Notes: generated from the sequence alone by a model not told the origin. DNA of 64,000 nucleotides from Centroscyllium fabricii (GCA_051313645.2 JBNRSN020000044.1:7812001-7876000), one strand, 5' to 3'; positions 9,722 through 54,426 are shown, numbered from the stretch's first letter. Numbers and translations are program-made.

Positions 9722-9802
9722 ATGTTTAAAGGCAGGACCCTGATCTGTATGTCTTTGATCCTTTGTGGCTTAGTGACCGAATGTTTTGGATTAGTTATCA
9801 TG
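9722..9802 (+). CDS. gal: Galanin-family precursor (preprogalanin / possible GALP orthologue), coding exon 1: signal peptide MFKGRTLICMSLILCGLVTECFGLVIM
   Basis: Polypyrimidine acceptor TTTTTCTCTCTCTAG|ATG and donor ATG|GTAATT; 81 nt, phase 0. Hydrophobic signal peptide resembling fish preprogalanin N-termini. Confidence 0.9.
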
Positions 9803-10116
9803 GTAATTATATTTATTCTTCAATGGCGAATTGACGGGACTGAATTTGAGTCCGTGCTCGGGGTGGGATTGAGGCTTGAGAATGTTTGGAAATGGGAATC
9901 GTTTCTCATTTTGTCCTCAGTGACAGGTCGTAGGTCAGGTGTAGAAATAATCAGAGAGGGTCTGTAACTTCCCAATTACACCAACAGGGCATCTAAAGCT
10001 CTCCTTTTCTCAAGGTCCCAGTGAGATATTCTGGCCTCGATATTAAACCCACACCTTCGCTGCCTCCCCGTAAGTATCGGGGTGTCTATCTGGCTTTAAA
10101 TTCACTGTGGTCCCAG

Positions 10117-10377
10117 GTCCAAAGATGTGCGGGTTAGGTTGATTGGCCATGATAAATTGACCCTTAGTGTCAGGGGGATTGAATATGTGGGGTTACGGGG
10201 ATAGGGTGGGATATGTGTTGGTGCAGGCTCGATAGGGATCGAGGGATATGGGGAGAGGGCAGGGGCGGGGTACTGAGTTTGGATGATCAGCCATGATCTC
10301 ATTGAATGGCGGAGCAGGCTCGAAGGGCTGAATGGCCTACTCCTGCTCCTATCCTCTATGTTCTATGTTTCTATGTT
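10117..10377 (+). mobile_element. 5'-truncated HE1-type SINE
   Basis: Matches the 3' half of the SINE at 5138 and ends in a (TTCTATG) tail. Confidence 0.9.
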
Positions 10378-10582
10378 ACCTCCATTGCCAGCAGACACGC
10401 CCAATGGCCAGTTGATTTTTTTAATCATGTGGGACCCTCACTGTGAGAGTAAAGATTTGTGCTCACTCACTCACTCACTCACTCACAAAAGCTGATGTGT
10501 TATGTGCCCTCTGTTTGAAGGCGGTTTTGCTGTGGCAAGAGGCCACCGTGGAGCGGGGTCACTCTGTGGAGAGGGGTCACTC

Positions 10583-11466
10583 AAGTTCAAGTTTACTTAT
10601 TTGTCACATACATCATTATACATGTACACAGTGCCGTGAAATGCTTAGTCGCAAGCTCCATGTCTGTGCTCTCTGGTTAACAATAAATCAAATAATAAAT
10701 TAACAATTATAAGAAAAGGCATTCAATCGTCAGTATGCCGACCCTTCATTTAGGATCCGGATGGCTTGGGGGGTAAAAGCTCCTCCTAAGCCTCTCTGTG
10801 TTGGTCTTAATGCTGCTGTAGCATTTTCCTGACCGCAGCAATGAGAAGAGGCCGTTGTTCGGGTGACTAGGATCCTTAATGACCTTCTTAGCCTTAGCCG
10901 TGCACCGCCTGGTGTAGATATCCTGCAGGTTAGGGAGTGCACCCCCGGTGGTACGTTCTGCCGACCGTACTACCCTCTGCAGGGCCCTACGGTCTTGTTT
11001 GATGCTGTTGCCATACCAGACGGGCAGCATGGTGGCATAGTGGTTAGCACTGTTACCTCACAGCGCTAGGGGCCCGGGTTCAAATCCAGCCTCTGGTGAC
11101 TATCTGTGTGGAGTTTGCACATTCTCCCCATGTCTGCGTGGGTTTCCTCCGGGTGCACCGGTTTCCTCCCACAGTCCAAAGATGTGCGGGTTAGGTTGAT
11201 TGGCCAGGATAAATTGACCCTTAGTGTTAGGGGGATTAAATATGTGGGGTTACGGGGATAGAGTGGGATATGTGTCGGTGCAGGCTCGATAGGGATCGAG
11301 GGATATGGCGACAAGGTAGGGACAGGGTACTGGGTTTGGATGATCAGCCATGATCTCATTGAATGGCGGAGCAGGCTCGAAGGGCCGAATGGCCTACTCC
11401 TGCTCCTATCTTCTATGTTTCTATGTTTCTATGACAGGATACTCTCAATAGTACATTTATAAAAGT
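10583..11466 (-). mobile_element. 5'-truncated Rex1/Babar-type LINE fragment interrupted by a SINE
   Basis: VWYGNSIKQDRRALQRVVRSAER...KDPSHPNNGLFSLLRSGK...TERLRRSFYP is a typical Rex/Babar RT C-terminus. 18-bp TSD TGTGGAGAGGGGTCACTC at 10565-10582 and 11467-11484. Confidence 0.82.
11022..11432 (+). mobile_element. Full-length HE1-type V-SINE nested in the Rex fragment
   Basis: tRNA-like head, V-domain, (TTTCTATG)n tail and GAC TSD. Confidence 0.93.
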
Positions 11467-11712
11467 TGTGGAGAGGGGTCACTCGATGGAGGTTCTCTTC
11501 AGCATAGAGCTGATGTTTGTGTGGAAGTGGTGAGGGGTTCTCTCTGTCAGGTTGGGCTCTGTCTGGAGGATGCATGAGCTTTTTAATCAGAGACCTGCAG
11601 GCTGTGTTGGCGCAGCTGAAAAGATTCAGTAAATTAATGATGGAGAAAACAGAAAATGATGTCTCTTAGAAAACAAAAAGAGAAACGTTAACCTGTAAAA
11701 CCTTTTTTTCAG

Positions 11713-11767
11713 CCTAAAGACAAGAGAGGTTGGACATTGAACAGCGCGGGATATCTGTTAGGCCCAC
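11713..11767 (+). CDS. gal: Galanin-family precursor coding exon 2: PKDKR-GWTLNSAGYLLGP
   Basis: TTTTTTTCAG|CCT...CCAC|GTGAGT; 55 nt. Encodes the invariant galanin N-terminal 13-mer after a KR convertase site. Confidence 0.97.
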
Positions 11768-11828
11768 GTGAGTAACAGGGTCACTGCCTCGGACCCAGTC
11801 TCAATCATCCTTAAACATTGACACGATA

Positions 11829-15748: not shown

Positions 15749-15847
15749 ATGCTGCGAATGGTCACAGGTCCCTGAGTGACAAGGGGGGTCTCGCAGGGAA
15801 GAGAGATGCCTTCGATGACAATTATAATTCAGTTGGAGCAAGTTTCA
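15749..15847 (+). CDS. gal: Galanin-family precursor coding exon 3: HAANGHRSLSDKGGLA-GKR-DAFDDNYNSVGASF
   Basis: CTTTCTTTTCAG|AT (phase 1, completing CAT=His) and donor CA|GTAAGA; 99 nt. Completes a 29-aa galanin with Gly-Lys-Arg amidation/cleavage signal. Confidence 0.93.
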
Positions 15848-15904
15848 GTAAGAATGGTTGATCATATTGTCACTGTGCCTTTGTAGAGGTGCATGTGTAA
15901 TATA

Positions 15905-18582: not shown

Positions 18583-18657
18583 GTAATCCACTGAACTCAC
18601 TTGACGAAAATGCCCTTCAGACCCTGATCGAATTCCTGGCCTACTTACGTCTGAGAG
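18583..18657 (+). CDS. gal: Galanin-family precursor coding exon 4 (GMAP-like): SNPLNSLDENALQTLIEFLAYLRLR
   Basis: TTGTTTTAAG|GT...AGAG|GTGGGT; 75 nt, phase 1/1. Matches the GMAP motif ENxxxTxIEFLxxLxL. Confidence 0.93.
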
Positions 18658-22474: not shown

Positions 22475-22536
22475 AATCTGGTGTCCTGGATAATTCAGCC
22501 GTGCCGGTCTCACCCGAGCAGATGCAACAAGCGTAG
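22475..22536 (+). CDS. gal: Galanin-family precursor terminal coding exon: ESGVLDNSAVPVSPEQMQQA*
   Basis: TGTTTTGGCAG|AA (phase 1, completing GAA=Glu) and TAG stop at 22534-22536. Resembles the GMAP C-terminus (ExGxLD...). The five exons total 372 nt = 123 aa + stop. Confidence 0.88.
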
Positions 22537-22665
22537 CCTCGGAACTTTGAGTCCTCGCATGTACAAGCTACAAATGTCCTCATATGAAAAGGAAACAAGC
22601 CCCACCCCCTTGTGATTATTTGCACGGATTTAAAGGATTGAGTTTTGCTGGTTAATTGTCCCAAT

Positions 22666-22671
22666 AATAAA
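22666..22671 (+). terminator. Polyadenylation signal of the galanin-family gene
   Basis: AATAAA 130 nt after the stop codon. Confidence 0.65.
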
Positions 22672-22856
22672 GTGAAGCGAAGATGCTGCACCTTTCTCCA
22701 GTCTGTCTCTTTATGCGTTTGTGTCGAAGTATCCCACTAAAACCCACTGTTAAAACTACACTTTTAATCAACAACCAAAGTCTGAGATCAGCCCCAGACA
22801 GAGAAACGAAGGGTAATTATGGGAGGGCAGGTCATTTGGCCCATCTTAATTCATTT

Positions 22857-23215
22857 TTAAAATTCATTCATGGGATGTGGGCGTCGTTGGCAAGGCCAGC
22901 ATTTATTGCCCATCCCTAGTTGCCCTCGAGAAGGTGGTGGTGAGCTGGCTTCTTGAACCACTGCAGTCCATGTGGTGAAGGTACTCCCACAGTGCTGTTA
23001 GGGAGGGAGTTCCAGGATTTTGACCCAGTGACGATGAATTATCGGTGATATACTTCCAAGTCAAGATGGTGTGTGACTTGAAGGGGAACTTGGAGGTGGT
23101 GGTGTTCCCATGCGCCTGCTGCCCTTGTCCTTCTAGGTGGTAGAGGTCACGGGTTTGGGAGGTACTGTTGAAGAAGCCTTGGTGAGTTGCTGCAGTGGAT
23201 CTTGTAGATGGTCCA
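22857..23215 (-). mobile_element. 3' fragment of the same LINE family as 16369-18198
   Basis: Reverse complement of that element's 3' end (GGCCAGCATTTATTGCCCATCCC...). Confidence 0.85.
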
Positions 23216-23618
23216 CTATCCAGTACACTGTCAGAGAAACCCTAACAACCCCATTGCAGCATTGAATTGATTCTTAAATGCATCCAGGTCTACTCTGTAC
23301 CCAGGAGTCCGTTCCAGTTATTGATCACTTGCCGCGGAAAGAGGAATTTACATAAGTCAGTTCTGAATTTAACTTTTACTGCTTTGAATCTGTGTTGCCT
23401 TGTCTTGCTCTTGCAATTTAGTTTAAAGTAATTTCCCTGAATTACTGTCAACAATCACATAAACCTCGATAAAATCACCTCTCAGGCACCTCATTTCAAG
23501 GTTCAAAAGCCCAAGTTTCTCCAATATTTCATCTAGCTCCGAGCTTTGACATTTGGAATCCGCCTCATGGCTCTTCCCCACTCTGCCTTGAGTGTTATAT
23601 GACTCCCTTGTGTCTCGG

Positions 23619-24275
23619 TGACCAGAACTGGACTAAATGCTCATGCTGGATCTGACCAGAACTGGACCGAGTGCCCACGGTGGGGTCTGACCAGAACTGG
23701 ACCCAGTGCCCAAGGTGGGGTCTGACCAGAACTGGACCCAGTGCCCAAGGTGGGGTCTGACCAGAACTGGAGCGAGTGCCCAAGGTGGGGTCTGACCAGA
23801 ACTGGACCCAGTGCTCACGGTGGGGTCTGACCAGAACTGGAGCCAGTGCTCATGGTGGGGTCTGACCAGAACTGGACCCAGTGCTCATGGTGGGGTCTGA
23901 CCAGAACTGGACCCAGTGCCCACGGTGGGGTCTGACCAGAACTGGAGCGAGTGCCCATGGTGGAGTCTGACCAGAACTGGACCGAGTGGCCACGGTGGGG
24001 TCTGACCAGAACTGGACCGAGTGGCCAAGGTGGGGTCTGACCAGAACTGGACCGAGTGGCCATGGTGCGGTCTGACCAGAACTGGACTGAGTGGCCACGG
24101 TGGGGTCTGGCCAGAACTGGACCGAGTGGCCACGGTGGAGTCTGACCAGAACTGGACTCAGTTCTCTGGGTGGGGTCGGACCAGGACTGGACTGAGTGCC
24201 CACGGTGAGGTCTGACCAGAACTGGACCGAGTGCCCACGGTGGGGTCTGACCAGAATTGGACCCAGTGCTCATGG
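23619..24275. repeat. 35-bp minisatellite (TCTGACCAGAACTGGACCCAGTGCCCACGGTGGGG)n, ~18 copies, derived from CR1 ORF2
   Basis: The minus strand translates to LVRPHLGHWVQFWS, a variant of CR1 LVRPHLEYCVQFWS. It continues into a decayed CR1 remnant at ~23230-23640. Confidence 0.92.
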
Positions 24276-26561
24276 TAAATATCTCCTGATAAAAGTCACA
24301 CGGAGGATTGGAACACTGTTGAGGGGCCACAGTGACACATCTGTGCTACATCTGACCTGGGAAGGACATTGTAGAGAGAGCTTTGCTCAGCATCTAATCG
24401 ACGCTGTGAATGACCTGCAAGAGCCTGATGGACCAATGCAAGGGAACTTTACTCTACATCTGTTGTCAGTATTTGGACCATCAGTAACTTATGCCTTTCT
24501 GTTTCTGTGTATTATCTTACTTTAAATAAATCTAACTATTGGTTTTATTCTGAACAGACTAAGTCTGACTGTATGGTTTGCTGCCTTTCAAAGTAGACGC
24601 AAGAGCTTGTGGCAATGCAGCATGGTTAAGGAGTAATGCTAGTCTCACTGGGCACTATTCATTTCAGGTAGGATGCTTACACCCAGCAGACAGAGGAGAC
24701 TGACATTCCATCAGTCTCGATTGGATCAGATTCCAGGTGCTAGAATACAAGTCTCTGACTTTGTGAGGATGCAGGATTTAGTTCATAGGAGACTCGTTCT
24801 GCTCGTGGAGACTGCCTGAACCATAACCGTGGTTTCTACCTCAACCATTTAAGATGCTCAGAGAAAATTTTGCATAAATTCTTCCCAAAAGCAAGGAGCA
24901 AAAATCCAGGATATTCATCCATCCTTGCACTTCAACCCTGTCCTGCTACCATCCACAGGTCATTCCTTCAGACTGTGCAGCATTGTGTCCCACACAGTCT
25001 AGCTTTCTCAAATCACCTGTTCCCGACTAAATTATTCAAAGCATTCTGGCCTCGCTTTGCCTACCATTGGTGTCTGGTCTCAGTCTGCATGTACACTATC
25101 CCAGTCTGCGTATACACTGTCCCAGTCTGTGCATACACTGCCTCAGTCTGCGCATACACCATTCCAGTCTGTGTATACACTGTCCCAGTCTGTGAATACA
25201 CAGTCCCAGTTTGGGTATACACTGTCCCAGCCTGAGTATGCACTGTCCCAGTCTGTGTATGCTCTGTCCCAGTCTGTGTATACACTGTCTCAGTCTGTAC
25301 ACTGTCCCAGTCTGTGTAGACACTGTCCCAGTCTGTGTAGATACTATACCAGTCTGTGCATACATTGTCTCAGCCTGTGTATACTCTGTCCCAGTCTGTA
25401 CATACACTGCCCCAGTCTGTGTATACAATGCCCCAGTCTGCATGTACAGTGTCTCAGTCTTTGTATACACTGTCCCAGTATGTACACAGTCCCAGTCAGT
25501 GTATACACTGTTCCAGTCTGTGTATACACTGTCTCAGTCTGTGTATACACTGTCTCAGTCTGTGTATACACAGTCCCAGTCTATGTATACATGGTCTCAG
25601 TCTGTGTATATGCTGCCCCAGTCTGTGTATAAACTGTCTCAGTCAGTGCATAGACTGTCCCAGTCAGTGCATACACTCTCCCAGTCTGTGTAAACACTAT
25701 CCCAGTCTATGTATACATGGTCTCAGTCTGTGTATACATTACCACAGTCTGTGTATAAACTGTCCCAGTCAGCGTATACACTATCCCAGTCTGTGCATAC
25801 ATCATCTCAGTCTGTGTATACACTGTCCCAGTCTGTATATACACTGTCCCAGTTTGTGTATATACAGTCCCAGTCTGTGTATGCACTGTCTCAATCTGTG
25901 TATACACTGCCCCAGTCTGTCTATATGCTGTCCCAATCTGTGAATACACCACCCCAGTCTGTGTGTGCACCATTCCAGTCTATGTATACACTCTGTCCCA
26001 GTCTGTGTATATACTGTCCCAATCTGTGTATACACGGTCCCAGTCTGTACACTGTTCCAGTCTGTTTATACACTGTCCCAGTCTGTGAATACACCATCCC
26101 AGTCTGTGTGTGCGCCATTCCAGTCTATGTATACACTCTCCCAGTCTGTGTAAACACTATCCCAGTCTGTGTATACACTGTCCCAGTCTGTGTGTACACT
26201 GTCACAGTTTGTGTATACACTGTCCCAGTCTGTGTATAAACTGACCCAGCCTGTGTATACACTTTCCCAGTCAGTGTAATACACTGTCCCAGTCTGTGTA
26301 TACACTGTCCTATTCTGTGTATACACTGTCCCATTCTGTGTATACAGTGTCCCATTCTGTATATACACTGTCTCAGTCTATGTATACACAGTCCCAGTCT
26401 ATGTATGCACGGTCCCAGTCTATGTATACACTGTCCCAGTCTGTGTATGCACAGTCCCAGTCTGTGGATACACTGTCCCAATCTGTGTATGCACTGTCCC
26501 AGTCTGTGTATACACTCTCTCAGTCTGTACACTGTCCCAGTCTGTGTATCCACTGTCCCTG

Positions 26562-26799
26562 TGATGCATGGTCAATTATACTCGAGACGAAGTTGAGAAT
26601 CCAACTGAGGCTATTATTCGCTAAGAACCCTGGAACATCCTTAGGCTGACTGGCAACTCCTTGTCGTGGGTCAGGCTCCCAGAGTCTGGGCCTATATCAG
26701 GTAGGCTGGGGGTGGAGTCAGCTTCAGGCGTGCCCAGGCATGTATACACACAGGCAAGAGGCAACTATGTACAAACAGTACAAACAGTGGTTCACCACA
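26562..26799 (-). mobile_element. Solo LTR (238 bp)
   Basis: The minus strand reads TGTGGTGAAC...TGCATCA with TG..CA termini, TATA-like GATATAGG and AATAATAGCC. Perfect 5-bp TSD CCCTG at 26557-26561 and 26800-26804. Confidence 0.88.
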
Positions 26800-28585
26800 C
26801 CCTGTCTGTGTGTACACTGTCCAAGTCTGTGTATATACTGTCCCAGCCTCTGTATACACTCACCCAGTCTGTGTATAGACTGTCCCAGTCTGTGTATACA
26901 CAGCCCCAGTCTGTCTATACACTGTCCCAGTCTGTGTATACACTGTCCCAGTCTGTGCATACATTATCCCAGTCTGTATGTACACTGTCCCAGTCTGTAT
27001 ATACACTATGCAAGTCTGTCTATACACTGTCCCAGTCTGTGTATACACAGTCCCAGTCTGTGTTATCACTCTCCCAGTTTGTGTATACACTGTCCCAGTC
27101 TGTTAATACACTGTCCCAGTCTGTGCATCCACTATACGAGTCTGTGTATACACTGTCCCAGGCTGTGTATACACTGTCTCAGTCTGTGTATACACTGTCT
27201 CAGTCTGTACACGTCCAGTCTGTGTATAGGCTGTCCCAGTCTGTGTATACATTGTTCCAGTCTGTGTATACACTGTCCCAGTCTGTATATACACGGTCCC
27301 AGTCTGTGCATAAATGGCCCAGCCTGTCTATACACTCTCCTAGTCTGTGTATACACTGTCCCAGTCTGTGTATGCACAATCCCAGTCTGTGTATACACTG
27401 TTCCAATCTGTGCATGCACTGTCCCAGTCTGTGCAAAAACTGTCTCAGTCTGTACACTGTCCCAGTCTGTGTAGACACTGTCCCAGCCTGTGTATACACT
27501 GTCCCAGTCTGTGTAGACACTGTCCCAGCCTGTGTATACACTGTCCCTGTCTGTGTATACACTGTCCCAGTCTTTGTATACACAGTCCCAGTCTGTGTAT
27601 ACACTGTCCCAGTCTGTGTTACACTCTCCCAGTCTGTGTGCACACTGTCCCAGTCTGTTTATACACTGTCCCAGACTGTACACTGTCCCAGTCTATGTAT
27701 ACACTGTCTCAGTCTGTGCAGACACTGTCACAGTCTTTGTATACGCTGTCCCAGTCTGTATATACACTGTCACAGTCTCTATATACACAGTCCCAGTCTG
27801 TGTAGACACTGTCCCAGTCTGTGTGTACACTATCCCAGTCTGTGTATACACTGTCCAAGTCTGTGCATACACTGCCCCAGTCTGTGTATGCACAATCCCA
27901 GTCTGTGCATACACTGTCCCAATCTGTGTATACACTGTCCCAGTCTGTACACTGTCCCAGTCTGTCTCTACACTGTCTCAGTCTGTGTTAGCACTCTCCC
28001 AGTTTGTGTATGCACTGTCCCAGTCTGTTTATACACTGTTCCAGTCTGTACATACACTATACCAGTCTGTGTATACACTGTCCCAGGCTGTGTATAAACT
28101 GTTTCAGTCTGTTTATACACTGTCTCAGTCTGTGCACTGTTCCAGTCTGTGTATAGGCTGTCCCAGTCTGTGTATGCATTGCTCCAGTCTGTGTATACAC
28201 TGTCCCAGTCTGTGTATACACTGTCCAAGTCTGTGTATACACTGTCCCAGTCTGTGTATACACTGTCCCACTCTGTGTATACATCACCCAACCTATGTAT
28301 ACACTCTCCCAGTCTGTGTATACACTCTCCCAGTCTGTGTATACACTGTCCCAGTCTGTTTATACACTGTCCGAGTCAGTGTATACACTGTCCCAGTCTG
28401 TATACTGTCCAAGTCTGTGTACACACTGTCCCAATCTGTGTTTACGCTATCCCAGTCTGTGTACACACTGTCCCAGTCTTTATACTGTCCCAGTCTGTGT
28501 GTACACTGTCCCAGTTTGTGTTTACACTGTCCCAGTCTGTGTATACACTGTCTCAGTCTGCATGTGCACTGTCCCAGTCTGTGTA

Positions 28586-28972
28586 GGGTGGCACGGTGGC
28601 ACAGTGGTTAGCATTGGTGTCTCACATCACTGGAGACCCGGGTTCAAATCCGGCCTAGGGTACTATCTGTGTGGAGTTTGCACATACTCCCCGTGTCTGC
28701 GTGGGTTTCCTCCGGGTGCTCCAGTTTCTTCCCACAGTCCAAAGATGTGTGGGTTAGGTTGATTGGCCAGGATAAATTGACCCTTAGTGTTAGGGGGGAT
28801 TGAATATATGGGGATAGGGTTGGATATGTGTCGATGCAGGCTCGATAGGGATTTGGGGAGAGGGCAGGGGCGGGGTGCTGGGTTTGGATGATCAGCCATG
28901 ATCTCATTGAATGGCGGAGCAGGCTCGAAGGGCCAAATGGCCTACTCCTGCTCCTAGTTTCTATGTTTCTAT
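28586..28972 (+). mobile_element. Full-length HE1-type V-SINE in the 21-bp array
   Basis: tRNA-like head, V-domain, (TTTCTATG) tail and GTGTA flanks. Confidence 0.93.
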
Positions 28973-30957
28973 GTGTATACACTGTCCTAGTCTGTGTATA
29001 CACTATCCCAGTCTGTGTGTACACTGTCCCAGTCTATACACTGCCCAAGTCTGTGTATACACTGTCCCAGTCTGAGTATACACTATCCCAGTCTGTGTAT
29101 AAACTGTCCCAGTCTGTGCATAAAATGACCCAGTCTGTTTATACACTATCCCCATTTGTGTATACACTGTCTCAGTCTGTGTTTTCACTCTTCCAGTCTG
29201 TGTATGCACTGTCCCCATCTGTTTATACCCTCTCCCAGTCAGTGTATACACTGTCCCAGTCTGTATATACACTGTCCCAGTCTGTGCATAAATGGCCCAG
29301 CCTGTTTATACACTCTCCTAGTCTGTGTATACACTGTCCCAGTCTGTGTATATACAATCCCAGTCTGTGTATACACTGTTCCAATCTATGCATGCACTGT
29401 CCCAGTCTGTGCAAAAACTGTCTCAGTCTGTACACTGTCCCAGTCTGTGTAGACACTGTCCCAGCCTGTGTATACACTGTCCCAGTCTGTGTAGACACTG
29501 TCCCAGCCTGTGTATACACTGTCCCTGTCTGTGTATACACTGTCCCAGTCTTTGTATACACAGTCCTAGTCTGTGTATACACTGTCCCGGTCTGTGTTGC
29601 ATTCTCCCAGTCTGTGTGTACACTGACCCAGTCTGTTTATACACTCTCCCTGTCTGTTTATACACTGTCCCAGACTGTACACTGTCCCAGTCTATGTATA
29701 CACTGTCTCAGTCTGTGCAGACACTGTCACAGTCTTTGTATACGCTGTCCCAGTCTGTATATACACTGTCACAGTCTCTATATACACAGTCCCAGTCTGT
29801 ATAGACACTGTCCCAGTCTGTGTGTACACTATCCCAGTCTGTGTATACACTGTCCCAGTCTGTGCATACACTGCCCCAGTCTGTGTATGCACAATCCCAG
29901 TCTGTGCATACACTGTCCCAATCTATGTATACACTGTCCCAGTCTGTACACTGTCCCAGTCTGTCTCTACACTGTCCCAGTCTGTGTTAGCACTGTCCCA
30001 GTCTGTTTATACACTGTTCCAGTCTGTACATACACTATACCAGTCTGTGTATACATGGTCCCAGGCTGTGTATAAACTGTCTCAGTCTGTGTATACACTG
30101 TCTCAGTCTGTACACTGTTCCAGTCTGTGTATAGGCTGTCCCAGTCTGTGTATGCATTGCTCCAGTCTGTGTATACACTGTCCCAGTCTGTGTATACACT
30201 GTCCGAGTCAGTGTATACACTGTCCCAGTCTGTATACTGTCCAAGTCTGTGTACACACTGTCCCAATCTGTGTACACACTGTCCCAGTATTTAGACTGTC
30301 CCAGTCTGTGTGTGCACTGTCCCAGTTTGTGTTTACACTGTCCCAGTCTGTGTATACACTGTCTCAGTCTACATGTGCACTGTCCCAGTCTGTGTGTACA
30401 CTGTCCTAGTCCGTGTATACACTATCCCAGTCTGTGTGTACACTGTCCCAGTCTATACACTGCCCTAGTCTGTGTATACACTGTCCCAGTCTGAGTATAC
30501 ACTATTCCAGTCTGTGTATAAACTGTCCCAGTCTGTGCATAAAATGACCCAGTCTGTTTATACACTATCCCCATCTGTGTATACACTGTCTCAGTCTGTG
30601 TTTTCACTCTTCCAGTCTGTGTATACACTGTCCCAATCTTTACACTTCCCATTCTGTGTATACACTGTCCAAGTCTGTGCATACACTGTCCCAGTCTGTT
30701 TATAGACTGTTCCAGTCTGTGTACGCACTGTCCAGTCTGTGTATACACCGTCCCAGTCTGTGTATACACTGTCCATTCTGTATATACACTGTTTGCATCT
30801 CTGTATACACTGTCCCAGTCTGTGTATACACTGTCCCAGTCTGTGTATACACTCTCCCAGTCTGTGTTTTCACTCTCCCAGTCTGAGTGTACACTGTCCC
30901 AGTCTTTGTATACACTGTCCCAGTCTGTGTATACACTGTCCCAGTCTGTACACTATC

Positions 30958-33265: not shown

Positions 33266-33405
33266 GTCTACCTTTCTGTTTTTGACAACAAAGTGGATAA
33301 CCTTGCATTTATCCACATTATATTGCATCTGCCACGCTTCTGCCCAATCACCTAACCTGTCCAAATCATCCTGGAGTTTCTTGGTATCCTCCTCGCAGCA
33401 CACAC

Positions 33406-34687: not shown

Positions 34688-37600
34688 TGTCATCTGCAAA
34701 CTTGGAGATATTACATCGAGTTCCCTCGTCTAGATCATTAATGTATATTGTGAATAGCTGGGGTCCAAGGACCGATCCCTGCGGTACCCCACTAGTCATT
34801 GCCTGCCACTCGGAAAAAGACTCATTAATTCATACTCTCTGCTTTCTGTCCACCAACCAGTTCTCTATCCAAGTCAATACCTTACCCCCAATCCCATGTG
34901 CTTTAACTTTACATGCTAATCTCTTATGCGGGACCTTATCGAAAGTCTTTTGAAAGTCCAAATACACCACATCTACTGGTTCTCCCCTATCTATTTTCCC
35001 AGTTACATCCTCAAAAAGCTCCAGTAGATTCGTCAAGCACGATTTACCTTTAGTAAATCCATGTTGACTTTGTCCGATCCTGTCACTGTTTTCCAAGTGC
35101 TCAGCTATTACATATTTTATAATGGACTCTAGCATTTTCCCCACTACCGATGTCAGGTACTGTAATTTCCCGCTTTCTCTCTACCACCCTTTTTGAATAG
35201 TGGGGGAACATTAGCTACCCTCCAATCCATGGGTACAGTTCCAGATTCCAGCGAATGTTGAAAGATGATCAGTAATGCATCTATTATTTCTAGGGCCACT
35301 TCCTTAAGTACCCTAGGATGTAGATTATCTGGCCCATGGGATTTATCGGCCTTTAATCCTGTCAATTTCCCTAACGCCATTTCCCTACAAATACTGATTT
35401 CTTTCAGTTCCTCCCTTTCATCAGACCCTATGCTCTCCAACATCTCTAGGAGGTTATTTGTGTTCTCCTTTGTGAAAACAGAACCAAAATATGCATTTAA
35501 TTGGTCAGCCATTTCTTTGTTCCCCATTATAACTTCCCCTGCTTCTGACTGTAAGGGACCTACACTTGATTTCACTAATCTTTTTCTCTTCACATAATCT
35601 ATAAAAGCTCTTCCAGTCAGTTTTTATGTTCCCTGCAAGCTTACTTTCATATTCTATTTTCCCCTTCTTAATTAATTCCTTTGCCCTCCTTTGTTGAATC
35701 CTAAACTGCTCCCAATCATCAGGGTTACCGCTTTTTCTGGCCAATTTATATGCCCTCCCCTTGGATCTTATCCTATCCCTAATTTCCCCTGTTAGCCATG
35801 GTTGAGTCACCCTTTTTGTTTTATTCTTATGCCAAACTGGGATGAACAAATTCTGCAGTTCATCCATGCGGTCTTTGAATGTTTGTCATTGCCTATCCAC
35901 CGTCAACCCTTTGAATGACATTCCCCAATTGATCCTACCCAATTCGCGCCTCATACCATCATAGTTTCCTTTATTTAAATTCAGGACCCTAGTCTCTGAG
36001 TCAACTACTTCACTCTCTATCCTAATGAAGAATTCTATTATATTGTGATCGCTCCGACCCAAGGGGCCTTGTACAACAAGATTGCTAATTAATCCTTTCT
36101 CATTACATAATACCCAGTCTAATATGGCTTGATCTCTGGTTGATTCCTCGACATACTGTTCCAGATAACCATCCCGTAAACATTCTAGGAATTCCTCCTC
36201 CACAGTATTTTTACTAATTTGGCTAGCCCAATCTATATGTAAATTAAAGTCACCCATGATGACAGATGTGCCCTTACTGCATGCTTCTCTAATTTCCCTT
36301 TTAATGCCATCCCCAACCTCCATATTACTGTTTGGAGGTCTATATACCACTCCCACTAACGTTTTCTTCCCCTTGCTATTTCTCAGTTCTACCCCTACAG
36401 ATTCCGCATCATCAGAGTTGATATCCTTCCTTTCAATTGTGTTAATCCCCTCTTTAACCAGCAATACTACCCCAATTCCCTTGCTTTTTTGCCTATCGTT
36501 CCTAAATATTGAATACACCTGAATGTTGAGTTCCCAGCCTTGGCCACCCTGGAGCCATGTTTCTGTAATCCAAATCAAATCATATTTGTTTACCTCTATT
36601 TCCACAGCTAATTCATCTACCTTGTTCTGAATGCTCCTTGCATTAAGACACAAAGCCTTCAGGCTTGTTTCTTTCATGCTCTCAGACCTATATGAATTAT
36701 TATTTCCTGTGACCATGTTTGATTTAACCTGTTGATTTCTCTGCCTTCTAATTTTGCTTTTCTCCTTTCTGTCTTTTGCTTTTATTCTTGTCTCCCTTTC
36801 TTCTGTCTCCCTGCTCAGGTCCCCAACCCCCTGCCACTTTAGTTTAAATCATCCCCAACAGCACTCGCAAACACTCCCCCTAGGACATTGGGCCTGGCTC
36901 TGCCCAGGTGCAGACCATCCCATTTGTACTGGTCCCACCTCCCCCAGAACCGGTTCCAATGTCCAAGGAATTTGAATCCCTCCCCCTTGCACCATTCCTC
37001 TAGCCATGTATTCATTTGTAATATCCTCCTATTTCTACTCTGACTAGCATGTGGCACTGGTAGCAATCCTGAGATTACTACATTTGAGGTCCTATTTTTT
37101 AATTTACGTCCTAACTCCCTATATTCTTCTTTTAGGACCTCATCCCATTTTTTACCTATATCGTTGGTGCCTATGTGCACTACGACAACTGTCTGTTTGC
37201 CCTCCCCCTCCAAAATGTTCTGTAGCTGCTCTGAGACATCCTTGACCCTTGCAGCAGGGAGGCAACATACCATCCTTTAGTCTCATTTGCGGCCGCAGAA
37301 ACGCCTATCTATTCCCCTTACAATTGAGTCCCCTATCACTATAGCTGTTCCCCTCTTTTTCCTCCCAGCCTGTGCAGCAGAGCCACCCATGGTGCCAGGA
37401 GGTTGGCTGCTGCTGTCCACCCCTGGTAGGTCATCCCCCCCCCCCCCCCACAATATCTAAAGCAGTATATCTGTTTGAGAGGGGGCTGACCACAGGGGAA
37501 TACTGCACTACCTGCCTGTACCTCGTACTCTGCTTGGCGGTCACCCATTCCATTTCTGCCTGAACATCCTTTACCTTCGGTGTGACCAACTCGCTAAGTG

Positions 37601-38221
37601 TGCTATCCACAAGGTCCTCAGCAGTGCGAATGCTCCAGAATGTATCCATCCGCAGCTCCAGCGCCACAATGCGGTCTGTCAGTTGCTTCAGATGGACACA
37701 CTTCCCGCACACATAGTCGTCAGGGTCACTGGGAGTGCCCCTGATTTCCCACATAGAGCAGGGGGAGCAAACTATGGTGCAGAGCTGTCCTGCCATGACT
37801 TATCCTTTAGTTATTAATTAAAATTAAATGAATCCCACCAATTTCACTTCAATTAATTGCTATATTCAAAGGCCCTTGCTTACAATAGTCCCCACAACAC
37901 AACAGAGACCTTAGAAACCAAAGAAATTCAGTTTAGAAAAATTTAGAAAGAAAATACTCACCAACCAATCACTTACCTGCTTCCTGGTGACGTCATCCTT
38001 TGATTACCTTTTACCTCTCTACCTGCTACTGAACGGGTATGCCTCGCTGATCGCTGTCCTTTATAGCTGCCACTGCCACTGCCGCCTCGCTGCTCAGGAC
38101 ACCCCCTAAGTCCAGTCCTCTCCCCGCTGTGGTCTGGGCCTCGCTGCTCGCCAACCTTTATAGCCGCCACCACTGCCTCGCTGCTCAGGGCACCCCCAGA
38201 TCTGCTCCACTCTGCTCCGCG

Positions 38222-40455
38222 CAGTCTGTACACTGTCCAAGTCTGTGTATACACTGTCCCAGTCTGTGTATACACTGTCCCCATCTGTGTATACACTGCC
38301 CCAGTCTGTGTATACACTATACCAGTCTGTGTATACACTGTCCCAGTCGTTATACTGTCCCAGTCTGTGTATACACTGTCCCAGTCTTTGTATACACTGT
38401 CCCAGTCTGTGTATAAACTGCTCCATTTGTGTATACATTGACCCAGTCTGTGTATACACTGTCCCAGTCTTTGCATATACTGACCCAGCCTGTGTATACA
38501 CTTTCCCAGTCTGTGTATACATTGTCCCAGTCTGTGCATACACAGTTCCAGCCTGTCTATACACTGTCCCAGTCTGTGTTTTCACTCTCCCAGTCTGTGT
38601 ATACACTGTCCCAGTCTGTTTATACACTGTCCCAGTCAGTTTATACACTGTCACAGCCTGTATACTGTCCCAGTCTGTGTATACACTCTCCCAGTCTGTA
38701 CACTGTCCCAGTCTGTGTATACACTATCCCAGTCTGTGTATACACTGTCTCAGTCTGTGTATACACTATCTCAGTCTGTGTTTTCACTCTCCCAGTCTGT
38801 GTGTACACTGTCCCAGTCTGTTTATAAACTGTCCCAGTCTGTGTATACACTGTCCCAGTCTGTACACTGTCCCAGTCTGTGTATACACTGTCCCAATCTG
38901 TGTATACACTGTCCCCATTTGTGTATACACTGTTCCAGCCTGTGTATACACTATACCAGTCTGTGTATACACTGTCCCAGTCTTTATACTGTCCCAGTCT
39001 GTGCGTACACTATCCCAGTCTGTGTGTACACTCTCCCAGTCTGTCTATACATTATCCCAGTCTTTATATACACTGTCCCAGTCTGTGTATACACTGTCCC
39101 AGACTGTGTATACATTGTCCCAGTCTGTGTATACACAGTTCCAACCTATCTATACACTGTCCCAGTCTGTGTTTTCACTCTCCCAGTCTATGTATACACT
39201 GTCCCAGTCTGTTTATACACTGTCCCAGTCAGTTTATGCACTGTCACAGCCTGTATACTGTCCCAGTCTGTGTATACACTCTCCCAGTCTGTACACTGCC
39301 CCAGTCTGTGTATACACTGCCCCAGTCTGTGTATACACTGTCTCAGTCTGTGTATACACTGTCCCAGTCTGTGTTTTCACTCTCCCAGTCTGTGTGTACA
39401 CTGTCCCAGTCTGTTTATAAACTGTCCCAGTCTGTGTATACACTGTTCCAGTCTGTACACTGTCTCAGTCTGTGTATACACTGTCCCAATCTGTGTATAC
39501 ACTGTCCCCATCTGTGTATACACTGTTTCAGTCTGTGTATACACTATACCAATCTGTGTATACACTGTCCCAGTCTTTATACTATCCCAGTCTGTGCGTA
39601 CACTGTCCCAGTCTGTGTTTACACTGTCCCAGTCTGTGTGCACACTCTCCCAGTCTGTCTATACACTATCCCAGTCTTTGTATACACTCTCCCAGTCTGT
39701 GTATACACTGTCCCAGACTGTGTATACATTGACCCAGTCTGTGTGTACACTGTCCCAGTCTGTGCATACACTGACCCAGCCTGTGTATACACTGTCCCAG
39801 TCTGTGTTTTCACTCTCCCAGCCAGTGTATACACTATCCCAGTCTGTATATACACTGCCCCAGTTAGTGTATACACTGTTCCAGTCTCTATACTGTCCCA
39901 GTCTGTGTATACACTGTCCCAGTCTGTGTATACACTGTCGCAGTCTGTGTATACACTGTCCCAATCTATGTGTACATTGTCCCAGTCTGTGTTTACACTG
40001 TCCCAGTCTGTGTATACACTGTTCTGGGACAATTTGTAAACAGGAACTAGTGAAGGACAACTAGACCGCCATGTTTTGTAACAGTTGATTAAAGCCTTGC
40101 TTTATACTCAAGCCAAGTGCTTAGTGAGTTTTCTTATGTCACTGTGTATACACGGTCTCAGTCTGTGTATACAATGTCCCAGACTCTGTATACACTGTCC
40201 CAGTCTGTGTATACACTGACCTAATCTGTGTATACACTGTCCCAGTCTGTGTATACACTGTCCCAGTCTGTGTATACACTATCCCAGTCTATGTATATAC
40301 TGTCCTAATCTGTGTATATACTGTTTCAGTCTGTGTATACATGGTCCCAGTCTGTGTATACACTGTCCCAGTCTGTGTATACACTGTCCCAGTCTGTGCA
40401 TACACTGTCCCAGTCTGTGTATACACTGTCCCAGTCTGCCTATACGCTGTCCCAG
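38222..40455. repeat. 21-bp minisatellite, right part
   Basis: Same unit as 25073-32272, resuming after the CR1 insertion. Confidence 0.96.
40020..40141 (+). mobile_element. 3' fragment of an LTR within the 21-bp array
   Basis: Unique island with ATTAAAGCCTTGCTTTAT (shared with 4180-4196), ending TTATGTCA. Confidence 0.55.
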
Positions 40456-41720
40456 GGAACAGTCCTGGAGAAATCACCAGAACCCAGAATTCTTACAGCG
40501 GAAGATCTACAGTTGTACAAATCTAGTTGCAGTTTGACAAACCAGGAATAACTAGAGACACTGAGTCAAGGTAATATTTTGATCCACACTCAAATATTCA
40601 CCATGGTTGGACACAAGGTGAAATCGAACGAAAGTTTCTGTGTAAGGAGCAGAATGAAATCTCAACCCCTGAGCAGCTGCTGATGTCTCTTCTCTTTCTG
40701 TTTCCCAAACTCTCCTTTTCCATTTTTGCTGTCTATGTTATGTCTTTTCTGTATTAATGTTTAATTCTTAATTTGTTTTAGATAGTTAATAAAGCCTCTT
40801 TTGTTCTGTGTCTTTTCCTCAGATATTTATTTTTGTCATTATTTCTTTTTAATGCTTTAAGAGAACATTACCTCAGTATATCTTTTTTCCCATGTATGTG
40901 CACTCATTTTATATCTAATAATAAAATCAGTAAACTTTTGTCATTTTGTTCTACTTACGTGCAGCGCCGGTCAGGAGCAAACTAGAAATAAAGATTCTGT
41001 GAAAAGGGCACTGATGAGAGTGATTTGCTTTGTTACTCAGAGCCTGCTGTCAGTCTGAACAGACAGTTCCCAGAACTGGTCTTGGACCTTTAGAAAGGGC
41101 AGATACTTAACAGTAACACCTTCCCACCTTGTGCAATTTCAAAGTCCATTTGTCCCTGAGTGTTTGATGTGTTTTCTGTCTGTCTGTTGTTGTAAAGGGC
41201 AGTGTTTGAGACATTGTGAGAGAGTAGAACCATTTCATTTAGAGAAAAACAATTTACTACAAATTTTGCTGATGAATATCCAGCAATAATTTACCAAATT
41301 TCACCCCAACAAATCTTATTCCTCATCCAAATGTTTTTCCCATTGGAGGACAGAATTCCAGAATGCACCACATTCTATTCAAGTCCACTGCAGAGTTCCT
41401 GCCCCCAACAGTAAACGATTGCCTATTTTCTATTTAAAAAAATACTCAGCACACTAAATGCAGCGATTGAATTTGTGTTAAATATGTGTTTTGAGGTTTT
41501 GTTTGTGTCTCTGTTTAAACTGAACTAATGTGAATGATTGAATGATGGAGAATCTCCCTTAATATTTCAACAGAGGGTGTTCCCAATGCCCATAATAAAG
41601 TGGAAGCTGATGACTTGCTCTTTACAAAGACTGCTCCACCATGAAATCCGGAAGATTCCTTTTGAACATGTTCCCATTACCACTGCACAGAGTGGTTGGA
41701 ACAGACCCTCCCCCCCACTG

Positions 41721-43783
41721 CATAGAAACATAGAAACATAGAAGATAGGAGCAGAAGTAGGCCATTCGGTCCCTCGAGCTTGCGCCGCCATTCAAGAGAT
41801 CATGGCTGATCATCCAAATTCAGTACCCCGTACCTGCCTTTTCTCCATATCCCTTGATCCCTTTAGTTTTAAGAAATATATCCAGAGTTGGCCTCTACTG
41901 TCTTCTGTGGTAGAGAATTCCACAGGTTCACCACTCTCTGGGTGAAGAAATTCCTCCTCATCTCAGTCCTAAATGGCTTACCCCTTATCCTTGGATTGTG
42001 ATCCCTGGTCCTGGACTCCCCGGCCATCGGGAACATCCTTCCTGCATCTAGTCTGTCCAGTCTTGACAGAATTTTATAAGTTTTAATGAGATCCCCTCTC
42101 ATTCTTCTAAACTCCAGTGAGTATAAGCCCAATCGACCCAATCTCTCCTCATACGTCATTCCTGCCATCCCAGTATTAGCCATGTGAATCTTGGCTGCAC
42201 TCCCTCCATGGCAAGAACATCCTTCCTCATATAAGGTGACTAAAACTGCACACAATACTCAAGATGTGGTCTCACCAAGGCCCTGTACAACTGCAGTAGG
42301 ACATCCTTGTTCCTATACTCAAATCCTCTCGCTACGAAGCCCAACATACCATTTGCCTTCTTCACCGCCTGCTGCACCTGCATGCTTACCTTCAGCGACT
42401 GGTGCACAAGAACACCCAGGTCTCGTTGCACTTCCCCTTCTCCCAATCTTTTGCCATTCAGATAATAATCTGCCTTCCTGTTTTTGACACCAAAGTCGAT
42501 AACCTCGCATTTATCCACATTATATTGCATCTGCCATGCCTCTGCCCAATCACCCAACCTGTCCAAATCAGACTGGAGTTTCTCTTTATCCTCCTCACAG
42601 CACACATGCCCACCCAGCTTTGTGTCATCTGCAAACTTGGAGATATTACATCGAGTTCCCTCGTCCAGATCATTAATTTATATTGTGAATAGCTAGGGTC
42701 TTAGGATCAATCCCTGTGGTACTCCACTAGTCACTGCCTGCCACTCGGAAAAAGACTCATTTATTCCAAATTTGCTTTCTGTCTGCCAACCAGTTCTCTA
42801 TCCAAGTCAATACCTTGCCCCCAATCCCATGTGCTTTAACTTTACATGTTAATCTCTTATGCAGGACCTTATCAGAAGCCTTCTGAAAATCCAAATACAC
42901 CACATCCGCTGGTTCACCCTTATCTATTTTACCAGTTACATCCTCAAAAAATTCCAGTAGATTAGTCAAGCACGATTTACCTTTTGTAAATCCATGTTGA
43001 CTTTGCCCGATCTAGTCACTGTTTTCCAAGTGCTCTGCTATTACATCCTTTATAATGGACTCTGGCATTTTTCCCACTATCGATGTCAGGCTTATCGGTC
43101 TATAATTCCCCGTTTTCTCTCTACCACCTTTTTTGAATAGTGGGGTAACATTAGCTACCCTCCAATCCATGGGTACTGTTCTAGAGTCTATCGAATTTTG
43201 GAAGATGACCAGCAATGCATCTACTATTTCTAGGGCCACTTCCTTAAGTATCCTAGGATGTAGATTATCAGGCCCTGGGGATTTATCGGCCTTTAATGCT
43301 GTCAATTTCCCTAACACCATTTCCTGACAACTACTGATTTAATTCAATTCCTCTCCCTCATTAGACCCTATATTCCCTGACATCTCTGGGAGGTTCTTGT
43401 GTCCTCCTTTGTGAAGACAGAACCAAAGTATGTATTTAATTGGTCAGCCATTTCTTTGTTCCCCATTATAAATTCCCCTGATTCTGACTGCAAGGGACCT
43501 ACGCTTGACTTCACCAATCTTTTTCTCTTCACATATCTATAAAAGCTTTTACAGTCAGTTTTTATGTTCCCTGCCAGCTTACTCTCATACTCTATTTTCC
43601 CCCTTTTAATTAATCCCTTTGCCCTCCTTTGCTGAATCTTAAACTGTTCCCAATCCTCAGGTTTTCTGCTTTTTCTGGTCACTTTATATGTCCTCTCCTT
43701 GGATCTTATGCTATCCCTAATTTCCCTTATTAGCCACGGTTGAGTCACCTTTTTTGTTTTATTTTTATGCCAAACTGGCATGA
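41721..43783 (-). mobile_element. 5'-truncated CR1 LINE (~2 kb of ORF2 with stops and frameshifts)
   Basis: KADKSPGPD, NYRPISLTS, YLDFQKA, LVRPHLEYCVQF; (TTTCTATG)n tail. Confidence 0.94.
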
Positions 43784-44479
43784 CTACAATCGATTAATTT
43801 CCCATACTTTCCATCCCTGAGTGAGATTGCCAATCTGGAGCTCATTTGTACAAATCGAGCAGTTTTGGACTGTACCCATTTGGAACTGGGTCAAAATGAC
43901 CAGATCTATTTCATGCAGGACCCGGACCTTTGCATTAGCACTTGAACTCAGACAAATATAACCCACTGTGTATCTCCTCACACTGCCCATCATTCAATAA
44001 TAAAAAGAACCCCTGTCCTTCAATATTCATTAATAACAAGGCTGATTCTTCTTTGCTAATCTCCCCAGGGAGCAATTAATGTTGGTTCATTACAATGCAA
44101 ATTAGACAGATTACTTTCAGAAAATAATATTTTGCGATCAAATATCTGAGTAATTGGAGACATGACGTGTGGTGAGTGCAGCGTGCTGGGGAGGAACAAG
44201 TGATTCTGGACCTATGGTTCCCAAAGCTCTCCACCACTGGGGGTTTCCCCCGCCTCATGTCTGGGTCTGTTATAGACTCGTTGATAGAGATTGATTGCGA
44301 CAATTAGTCAACAACTCCATTATCATTGGATCGTATGACTACCAGGATGGTAGAAGGCGAAGTTGATGGATGCTGGTCTTTCTTCATCCAGCAACCCCTC
44401 TGTTCCTGCTGCCAGTTGTGCCTTAAAAGTTAGGAATGGTGCACCATGCACCTGTCAGGTTATCCTAGTAGGATTGATC

Positions 44480-45124
44480 AGCCTGGATTGAGCTGATTGG
44501 GCTAGTTTAGATTTTCCTGGGTTAGTTGGGTTAAGATGTGGTTATCAGGATAGCATGGGTTTGTCAGGTTAGCTTGATTGGATTAAGCTGGGATGGTTGG
44601 ATTAGCTTTGAATTGGTTGGGTTATCCTAGACTGATTGGGTTAGTGTGGGTTGGACTGGTTAAGATTTGTTTGGGCTGATTGGGTTAGTTTGGGCTAATT
44701 AGGTTAGTTTGGGCTGATTGGGTTAGTTTGGGTTAGTTTGGGCTGATTGGATTAGTTTGGGTTAGTTTGGGCTGTTTGGGTTGATTGGGTCAGTTTGGAC
44801 TGATTGGGTCAGTTTAGGCTGATTGGGTTAGTTTGGGCTGATTGGATTAGTTTGGGCTGTTTGGATTAGTTTGGGCTGATTGGGTTAGTTTGGGCTGATT
44901 GGGTTAGTTTGGGCTGATTGGGTTAGTTTGGGCTGATTGGGTTAGTTTGGGCTGTTTGGATTAGTTTGGGCTGTTTGGGTTAGTTTGGGCTGATTGGGTT
45001 AGTTTGGGCTGATTGGGTCAGTTTGGGCTAATTGGGTTAGTTTGGGCTGATTGGGTTAGCTTGGGCTGATTGGGTTAGTGTGTGCTGATTGGGTTAGTTT
45101 GGGCTGATTGGGTTAGCTTGGGCT
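44480..45124. repeat. 19-bp G-rich minisatellite (TGATTGGGTTAGTTTGGGC)n
   Basis: Direct periodicity, most regular at 44680-45124 and degenerating leftwards. Confidence 0.92.
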
Positions 45125-45340
45125 CCCGAACCTCCTCGACCTGCGGCCCCCATCCCCAACTCCCCCTCCGACTTGCGGCCCCCCCTCTCCCATCAGACTG
45201 GCAGAGAGCACTTGAGGGGGGTTAGGATCTGGCCATTGGTTTCAATACATGGCTTTTCACTCTCACTGTCTAATATTCGGTTTATTTCATAATGGTTGAA
45301 AACATAAAACCTGAAAGTTTATGGTGTCTTTTAAGAGAAG

Positions 45341-53200: not shown

Positions 53201-53700
53201 CCCAAGCTGTTTCACTATCCTGATCATTTGACCCAATATCCTTCCTTTCTATTGCAGTTATTCCATCCTTTATTAAAAAGGCCACCCCACCTCCTTTTCT
53301 TTCCTGTCTGTCTTTTCTGATTGTCAAGTAACCCTCTATGTTTAACTCCCAGTCCTGATCACCTTGCAGCCATGTTTCTGTAATGGCCACAATATCATAC
53401 CTATACGTGCTTAATTGTACCGTCAATTCATCTATCTTATTGCGAATACTACGTGCATTCAGATAAAGCACTTTCACATGTGTTTTACTACCCTTTATTT
53501 CTGTTTTTACTCCTTTTACGACTCTACCTTTATCTTCATACATTCTGTATCCTCCTAGCACACTTTGATTTTCAGATTCCCCACTGAAACCCTGCTCTAT
53601 TTCCTTTACCCCTGTCGTTATTATCTCTCTTGAATCCTCCCCCCCGCTACTTAGTTTAAAGACCTCTCTATTGCCCTAGTTATATGATTTGCCAGGACCC
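50251..53700 (-). mobile_element. Young CR1 LINE, 5'-truncated at the end of ORF1, ORF2 complete except one in-frame stop
   Basis: ORFs 52029-53561 (APE endonuclease) and 50667-51953 (RT) lie in the same frame, separated by TAG at 52029-52031. Composite 3'UTR and (ACTCTATG)n tail. Confidence 0.96.
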
Positions 53701-53704
53701 TAGT

Positions 53705-54133
53705 CCCATTCGCTATCGCCCCATTTGCTATCGCCCTATTCACTACTGTCCATTCGCTATCGCCCCATTTGCTATCGCCCCATTTGCTATCTCCCCATTC
53801 GCTATCGCCCTATTCACTACTGTCCATTCGCTATCGCCCCATTTGCTATCGCCCCATTCGCTACAGCCCATTTGCTATCGCCCCATTGACTACAGCCCAT
53901 TCGCTGTTGCCCCATTCGCTATCGCCCCATTCGCTACAGCCCATTTGCTATCGCCCCATTGACTACAGCCCATTCGCTACAGCCCATTCGCTGTTGCCCC
54001 ATTCGCTATCGCCCCATTCGCTACAGCCCATTCACTATCAGCCCATTCGCTACAGCCAATTCGCTATCGCCCCATTCGCTATCGCCCCATTCGCTATCGC
54101 CCCATTTGCTATCGCCCCATTCACTATCGCCTG
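53705..54133. repeat. 14/15-bp minisatellite, right part
   Basis: Same unit as 49760-50250. Confidence 0.93.
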
Positions 54134-54319
54134 ATTCACTGAGGCCTGGTTCACTACCTGCCAAAGACCAGTTTCATCCCCTGGAGTTATCTGCATATCT
54201 CAGACAAAAGTTCAGAGCAAATAAAATTCAAACCTCACCAAATATAAACAAAGGGCAATATTTGTAGTGACTGGAAATTGAGCTAAATCAACAATAAATT
54301 CTCCCATTGGAGGCGTTAC

Positions 54320-54426
54320 CTTTCCGTGTGTCTGAGCAATGAGGGAACGGCTCCCGGACACGGGACCAGGACACAGCTCAGGACCAGTCCGACCAACAGC
54401 ACTCGACCAGTGGGAGGGGGCTCCAT
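54320..54426 (-). CDS. pth2: PTH2 / TIP39 precursor, first coding exon: MEPPPTGRVLLVGLVLSCVLVPCPGAVPSLLRHTE(S)
   Basis: Acceptor CTTTCCCTTCAG|GAT ATG, hydrophobic signal peptide and donor GAAAG|GTAAC. It ends in phase 2, exactly complementing the phase-2 acceptor at 46078; total CDS 765 nt = 254 aa + stop. Confidence 0.85.

Follow-up and report, generated by a model that had tools for sequence, protein, structure and literature searches.

A second galanin gene, GAL2, between KASH5 and PTH2 in the shark Centroscyllium fabricii and its probable relation to mammalian GALP

The window analyzed here, a stretch of 64,000 nucleotides from the 7.2-Gb genome of the shark Centroscyllium fabricii (G000:C978:7812001-7876000), carries a galanin-family gene on the plus strand and PTH2 on the minus strand. 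Both are real, intact genes. They converge, with 22,884 bases from stop to stop and with their poly(A) signals (AATAAA at 22666 on the plus strand and at 45346 on the minus strand) 22.7 kb apart, in agreement with an earlier note, made from the sequence of the window, that described two intact converging neuropeptide genes with repeats between them. On the plus strand, the shark has an intact gene that belongs to a second vertebrate galanin group, called GAL2 here. It is not GAL, because the genome has a separate canonical GAL on C557, and the claim of the earlier note that the window holds a second true galanin was thus upheld. We consider it likely that this GAL2 gene stems, as a duplicate of GAL, from the early vertebrate genome doublings, encodes a predicted amidated 29-mer, and is the counterpart of mammalian GALP.

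The galanin-family gene has five coding exons (372 nt, 123 aa) with no internal stops, and all introns are GT..AG. Coding exon 1 (9722..9802; 27 codons, phase 0) has 81 nt, equal to that of C557 GAL, and encodes a predicted signal peptide, a hydrophobic N-terminus that aligns with GAL precursors. Coding exon 2 (11713..11767; 55 nt as in C557 GAL) contains the KR site and the 13-residue galanin core (11728-11766; Pfam Galanin E 7e-9). The remainder of the 29-mer, GKR (15796-15804), and the start of a GMAP-like peptide are in coding exon 3 (15749..15847; 99 nt vs 87 in C557 GAL), and the GMAP-like core is in coding exon 4 (18583..18657; 75 nt vs 78 in C557 GAL). The last exon (22475..22671, coding 22475-22536) has its stop at 22534-22536, includes the AATAAA, and aligns with the C-terminus of the shark orthologues. 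A possible non-coding exon 1 was inferred at 8000..8156 (start approximate), with a donor-like GT at 8157 and an AT-rich box near 7974; a non-coding exon 1 is present in human GAL (PMC9367524). A run of N (15155-15480) falls inside a GAL2 intron.

The intron 15848-18582 (GT..AG) was skipped exactly in contigs of four of four public runs from three studies of related organisms, the kind of these runs being guessed as RNA and 15847>18583 being the one junction compared. At this junction, with the donor of coding exon 3 and the acceptor of coding exon 4 both seen in spliced contigs, GAL2 orthologues in related organisms are spliced as modeled.

In the precursor, a hydrophobic leader is followed by KR, the 29-residue galanin, GKR, and a tail resembling GMAP. 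KR immediately precedes the galanin core, and 29 residues separate it from GKR. A KR-cleaved, amidated 29-mer with a GMAP-like peptide, as proposed in the earlier note, is encoded as far as the motifs go, with processing predicted. A second Pfam Galanin match was obtained among the GAL2 exon pieces (E 5.6e-4). The lone exon 4 matched Pfam GMAP at 20.9 bits (E 4e-4), below the Pfam cut-off; the Heterodontus protein P0002, 91% identical to the window protein, passes it with 36.9 bits vs a cut-off of 25.

A Pfam search of the genome gave 12 rows with two strong galanin cores, the window gene and C557:44074897. The Pfam Galanin matches on C1377 (10 of the 12 rows) were dropped, and the one inspected (L003) was a repeat frame. 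The C557 gene (C557:44072055-44082690) was modeled as 119 aa in five coding exons with the same phases as the window gene, and it likewise encodes a 29-mer, GKR, and GMAP. The first 15 mature residues of the two peptides are identical, and 6 of the 29 residues differ, all at positions 16-26. The genes differ in exons 3 and 4 as given above, in chromosome and neighbors, and in overall sequence (55% protein identity), and the C557 protein shares 88% identity with whale shark GAL, grouping with shark GAL (support 100/98 in the 65-row tree described below).

C557 also holds SPX2 (48.49 Mb), a glycogen synthase gene (48.54-48.72 Mb), and a TESMIN-type CXC exon (48.79 Mb), with TEAD at 122.9 Mb and two PTH genes at 124.0 Mb. 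This marker set fits the report of SPX2 and GAL as one linkage group (PMC4131245). The picture of GAL synteny is not tidy, with the markers at least 4.4 Mb from GAL and no PPP6R3, TESMIN, or CPT1A exons found in 320 kb around it (43.835-44.155 Mb) by an exon finder that may miss genes. With regard to the second galanin beside PPP6R3, TESMIN, and CPT1A that the earlier note suggested looking for, GAL was found on C557 together with a TESMIN-type gene, and none of these three genes was found close by. Its flanks contain what we take to be SLC9C-like (sperm Na+/H+ exchanger) exons upstream (43.84-43.99 Mb, minus strand) and a COX6A-like frame downstream (44.145 Mb, plus strand), both without a Pfam match.

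Searching with GAL2 coding exon 3 gave six candidates, all six of them shark proteins and five named 'galanin peptides-like'. One of these shark proteins used as query gave 685 matches, and the 120 listed fall into canonical GAL and a second group. Among the matches listed, the second group includes, besides sharks and lungfish, amphibians (caecilians, salamanders, and frogs, with Xenopus 'gene 2'), reptiles (lizards, snakes, and alligator), and the fishes bichir, sturgeon, and gar. Rays, turtle, and several teleosts were added to it by a representative search and look-up. A 65-row tree was built from proteins hand-picked from about 300, and in it the window protein falls in the starred shark and ray GAL2 clade (support 95/86). 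It is 81-91% identical to the seven of seven shark GAL2 proteins in the tree, with Heterodontus at 91%. Xenopus 'galanin prepropeptide, gene 2' (P0036, 52% identity to the window protein) and the RefSeq 'galanin peptides-like' proteins of Heterodontus (P0002), Heptranchias (P0008), and the lungfish Protopterus (P0009, 63%) share the clade and the KR-core-GKR-GMAP layout. The window gene does not group with GAL orthologues in the trees; it groups with Xenopus gene 2 and the proteins named 'galanin peptides-like'.

It is very improbable that the window gene arose from canonical GAL by a recent duplication specific to sharks or by the move of a copy. The window gene has kept the 29-residue length and all GAL processing signals, and the nearest flanks of C557 GAL differ from the human ones, both of which would suit such a copy. 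However, the window protein is 55% identical to C557 GAL vs 58-63% to the lungfish, caecilian, salamander, and two frog GAL2 proteins, a cartilaginous-fish clade of GAL and GAL2 was rejected in the approximately unbiased (AU) test (p-AU 2.9e-5), and the neighbors of the window gene form a separate paralogous block.

Membership in GAL2 is accompanied by a difference in peptide length. Using a motif rule on the 120 matches listed, 56 of 59 GAL-type peptides had 29 aa, and the 61 GAL2-type proteins among the 120 comprised 8 with 29 residues (all sharks), 37 with 26, 5 with 27, and 11 longer splice forms. Two ray GAL2 proteins likewise give 29 residues, and among the proteins compared, 29 residues in GAL2 are kept only by sharks and rays. 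The short isoforms of bony vertebrates (26 or 27 residues) lack three residues where exon 3 begins. Since the shark GAL2 register equals that of GAL residue for residue, the simplest reading is that the 26-mer arose by one three-residue loss, which would have occurred in the bony-vertebrate stem.

Some unusual proteins were seen in these searches. The stingray protein P0184 (Hypanus sabinus), named 'galanin peptides-like', has a spexin-like start and a galanin-like continuation (Pfam Galanin E 1e-4, Spexin E 0.12) and is an odd variant or a third family member. Divergent GAL2-type proteins (P0141, P0155, P0165, P0172, and P0191) occur in char, characins, loach, smelt, and electric eel; a single GAL is stated for teleosts outside carps (PMC4992253).

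The order of genes on C978 is TEAD (minus strand, 6.96-7.04 Mb), RAS (7.29 Mb), a Dickkopf-domain gene (7.52 Mb), KASH5 (7.60-7.64 Mb, recognized by EF-hand and coiled-coil exons), GAL2 (7.822-7.835 Mb), PTH2 (7.857-7.866 Mb), and glycogen synthase (GYS, 7.938-8.055 Mb), as read over a minor part of the contig, with a gap at 7.04-7.21 Mb. For a 162-kb duplication at human 19q13.33, TEAD2, DKKL1, CCDC155 (KASH5), and PTH2 are given in this order, and the list in the available text names no galanin-family gene (PMC13431349). The C978 order matches this list, which places GAL2 within the block, with KASH5 on one side and PTH2 on the other. Its neighbors are human 19q13.33-type genes, which bears out the synteny guess of the earlier note. 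Genome searches, some of them floor searches, gave no match on C978 for the SPX2, TESMIN, PPP6R3, CPT1A, and PTH families, and the SPX2, TESMIN-type, and PTH matches sit on C557. Results that had been named beforehand as contrary to the proposal did not occur: the window gene is not the only galanin gene in the genome, its neighbors are not the GAL synteny genes, and the trees place it apart from GAL orthologues.

The gene at the DKKL1 position (C978:7.520-7.533 Mb, plus strand; L126, L128) has cysteine-rich Dickkopf domains; mammalian DKKL1 is not known to have them. Between PTH2 and GYS lies an exon-like frame with very strong splice scores and no Pfam match (L037:9810-9968, plus strand, C978:7.926 Mb). 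The RAS exons of H/K/N type that follow TEAD and precede the Dickkopf-domain gene in this order (C978:7.290-7.298 Mb, plus strand; L143-L144) may be KRASBL, a gene lost in mammals and birds (PMC9882654).

For comparison with GALP, a search with pig GALP gave 63 matches, mammals wherever named and one of them a marsupial; none of the named GAL2-type matches among those listed is a mammal. After three unnamed proteins, one without the core, and four aberrant pig or cat models were dropped, 54 GALPs were kept. The basic pair before the core is absent in 53 of the 54, exact GKR is present in 3, and a basic doublet follows 11-16 residues after the core in 37. Human GALP (P0249) has no Pfam GMAP match. 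GALP is a 60-aa peptide in mammals and is not amidated (PMC9174643). It shares with the window gene the 13-residue core, the basic doublet after the core in most cases, and, in human, the chromosome arm 19q13; it differs in being mostly without KR, GKR, and GMAP, all three of which the window gene has, and it is 27-40% identical to the window protein.

The post-core part of GALP was compared with GAL and GAL2 by joint column permutation, which replaced a first shuffle test whose z was inflated by related GALP rows. For 6 eutherian GALPs against 6 sauropsid GAL2 proteins, z was 3.1-4.6 over five settings, with 0 of 300 permutations reaching the observed score in four of the five settings and 3 of 300 in the fifth. 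The values were at most 1.0 against GAL sets and at most 1.3 against shark GAL2. Taken per target, the median z was 1.55 for 46 bony-vertebrate GAL2 proteins, 0.0 for 64 GAL proteins, and 0.1 for 10 shark and ray GAL2 proteins, and z exceeded 2 in 10 of 46, 0 of 64, and 0 of 10, respectively. The tail of human GALP is faintly colinear with turtle GAL2, in an alignment that is almost gap-free. To a faint degree, the GALP tail thus appears to align better with GAL2 of bony vertebrates than with GAL. This alignment signal, a chromosome arm common to both genes, and distributions of GAL2 and GALP that complement each other let us judge with fair confidence that shark GAL2 is orthologous to mammalian GALP.

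Several results weigh against this orthology or against the reading of the neighborhood on which it draws. Human GALP, some 6-7 Mb from the 19q13.33 block, is not between KASH5 and PTH2, unlike shark GAL2. GALP falls on the GAL2 side in a 32-row tree, and in the 65-row tree it comes out on the side of GAL without a resolved position; in the AU test, neither GALP with mammal GAL (p 0.315) nor GALP with sauropsid GAL2 (p 0.183) was rejected. Outside the core, hhalign gave nothing significant for GALP vs GAL or GAL2 (best E 0.06). The tail signal is post hoc, comes from non-independent targets (two clades), and is partly a matter of spacing; marsupial GALP and shark GAL2 are without it. RPL28 and PPP6R1 are, we assume, markers near human GALP, and RPL28 and a SAPS gene were found not on C978 (8.6 Mb) but on C745 (96 Mb), together with CPT1 and a presumably PTH4-like gene (exon at C745:7.21 Mb). 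The labels PPP6R1/PPP6R3 and CPT1A/CPT1C are likewise assumed here, as a PDB comparison gave no PPP6R match and no CPT1 chain. The TEAD gene on C978 scored higher with other paralogues in PDB (TEAD3 98.5, TEAD1 96.3, and TEAD2 83.8 bits) and is TEAD2 only by elimination and position. In coelacanth and Xenopus, galp and kiss3 are on one chromosome (PMC9174643); KISS3 was not found on C978 by family or exact pattern, with most of C978 unread.

The checks proposed in the earlier note gave mixed results. Annotation of the flanks for 19q13 placed KASH5, a Dickkopf-domain gene, PTH2, GYS, and TEAD on C978 but RPL28 and the SAPS gene on C745, and the precursor phylogeny placed the window gene with GAL2 and not with GAL but gave a different place to GALP in each tree. 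As to the GALP lineage that it had proposed, the alignment signal faintly favors GAL2, human GALP is not in the KASH5-PTH2 interval, and the trees reject neither origin of GALP.

It is possible, though on balance unlikely, that GAL2 was lost in mammals and that GALP arose separately, from a later copy of GAL or from a copy of GAL2 made before that gene disappeared, which would make the shark gene a sister and not the counterpart. This is close to the view in the available text of PMC4992253, where the Xenopus and coelacanth genes keep GMAP, are without synteny to human GALP, and are regarded as duplicated GAL. It is consistent with a human gene list without GALP in the KASH5-PTH2 interval (PMC13431349) and with GALP at 19q13.43 (PMC9367524), as well as with the AU result for GALP with mammal GAL and the lack of profile similarity beyond the core. 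The neighboring RAS gene, if it is KRASBL, would indicate that losses from this block happen. On the other hand, it is less parsimonious for a GAL copy to have arrived by chance on the very arm where GAL2 had been, the GALP tail scores nearer to bony-vertebrate GAL2 than to GAL, and no species with GAL, GAL2, and GALP together was found among the matches listed.

The peptides of the shark gene would be made by known prohormone processing. The signal peptide would be removed and the precursor secreted, convertases would cut at KR and GKR with Gly serving amidation to give an amidated 29-residue galanin, and the GMAP-like peptide would be co-released. The receptor-binding residues of galanin are within its first 16 (PMC3516677). 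As the peptide matches C557 galanin exactly over its first 15 residues, with differences only at 16-26, both shark galanins would be expected to act on the same GALR receptors, and the main difference between the two genes would lie in the sites and times of their expression. Because the first 15 residues are shared, maps of shark galanin made with antibodies may mix the two genes.

If shark GAL2 is orthologous to GALP, a stepwise history can be proposed, which seems to us reasonably probable as a whole. Shark GAL2 would be the true GALP orthologue in its oldest state, with the amidated 29-mer ancestral and kept by sharks and rays alone. Bony vertebrates would have shortened it to 26 residues in their stem. 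In mammals, the N-terminal KR would have been lost, GKR and GMAP would have decayed, and the gene would have moved along the chromosome, from between KASH5 and PTH2 to 19q13.43, to become GALP. If true, this would settle the dispute of 2014-2016 and provide a stepwise path from galanin to GALP.

In mammals, feeding and reproduction are under the control of GALP. There is disagreement about where GALP came from, between the view that the second galanin of frogs and coelacanth is GALP and the view that GALP is mammal-only for lack of synteny. GAL and GALP have been derived from genome doubling (PMC5207463). A second galanin of this type is not new; its GMAP-bearing architecture has been reported from Xenopus and coelacanth, and many sharks have annotated orthologues. 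Kim et al. in 2014 reportedly named the Xenopus and coelacanth second galanin GALP, a naming disputed in 2016 (PMC4992253), and the figures or supplements of that work may already show these neighbors. In full-text literature, with subscription journals mostly outside it, no account of shark GAL2, its KASH5-PTH2 position, or the 29 vs 26 split was found. Added here are the position of the gene between KASH5 and PTH2, the 29 vs 26 split, and the faint signal between the GALP tail and bony-vertebrate GAL2. The shark locus singles out KASH5-PTH2 as the interval of interest in monotremes and marsupials, so that the origin of GALP becomes directly testable.

PTH2 on the minus strand has two coding exons encoding 254 aa that end in KR and the 38-aa TIP39 (Pfam TIP39 68.6 bits, E 4e-19). 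Coding exon 1 (54426-54320) encodes a predicted signal peptide and ends in phase 2, and coding exon 2 (46078-45421) encodes the propeptide, KR, the mature peptide (45537-45424), and the stop, its acceptor at 46078 being picked by open frame and phase, not from reads. A possible TATA box (about 55619-55612) and non-coding first exon containing a 10-base tandem array were inferred at 55191..55619 on the same strand. The precursor is longer because of a 60-base unit repeated four times in frame in the propeptide (45620-45855, minus strand, 96% match), giving a 20-aa tandem repeat. KASH5 is nearby as in human; the shark gene differs in these four repeats and in the galanin gene between it and KASH5.

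The intergenic stretch (22700..45300) contains tandem arrays of 35, 21, and 19 bases and LINE/SINE-type repeats. No gene was found in it with an exon finder that was crude and used with heavy repeat masking, so that genes may be missed; it gave weak exon candidates only. All 47 open frames of at least 130 aa between GAL2 and PTH2 were tandem-repeat or LINE-type by eye, without a Pfam scan. The tail-to-tail position of GAL2 and PTH2 is most likely an old linkage and not a functional pair. Co-regulation or 3'-end interference could be imagined for two neuropeptide genes in convergent orientation, but it is extremely improbable, with separate poly(A) signals, 22.7 kb of repeats in between, and a human PTH2 without an adjoining galanin gene in the 19q13.33 gene list (PMC13431349).

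Further observations concern other contigs and the rest of the window. The glycogen synthase gene on C557 (48.54-48.72 Mb, minus strand) is a third one and converges with SPX2 in the way that the glycogen synthase gene on C689 converges with SPX1; no published account of it was found in a literature search. Some of its exons are doubled (48.61-48.63 and 48.66-48.67 Mb), by internal duplication or as an assembly artefact. Two kisspeptin matches, KISS1 and KISS2, are on C712:97.19 Mb and C689:107.59 Mb, with KISS2 beside SPX1 and GYS2 as in other vertebrates. A CPT1 gene on C1366 (1.48-1.49 Mb) has motif changes relative to that on C745, which keeps the motifs, and may be diverging. A SAPS (PPP6R) exon and its flanks are nearly identical on C557:79385557 and C1289:1223693, as a duplicate fragment or a misplaced scaffold. 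In the window, long minisatellite arrays with units of 24, 21, and 28 bases lie at 1-4707, 25077-32269, and 58244-62171.

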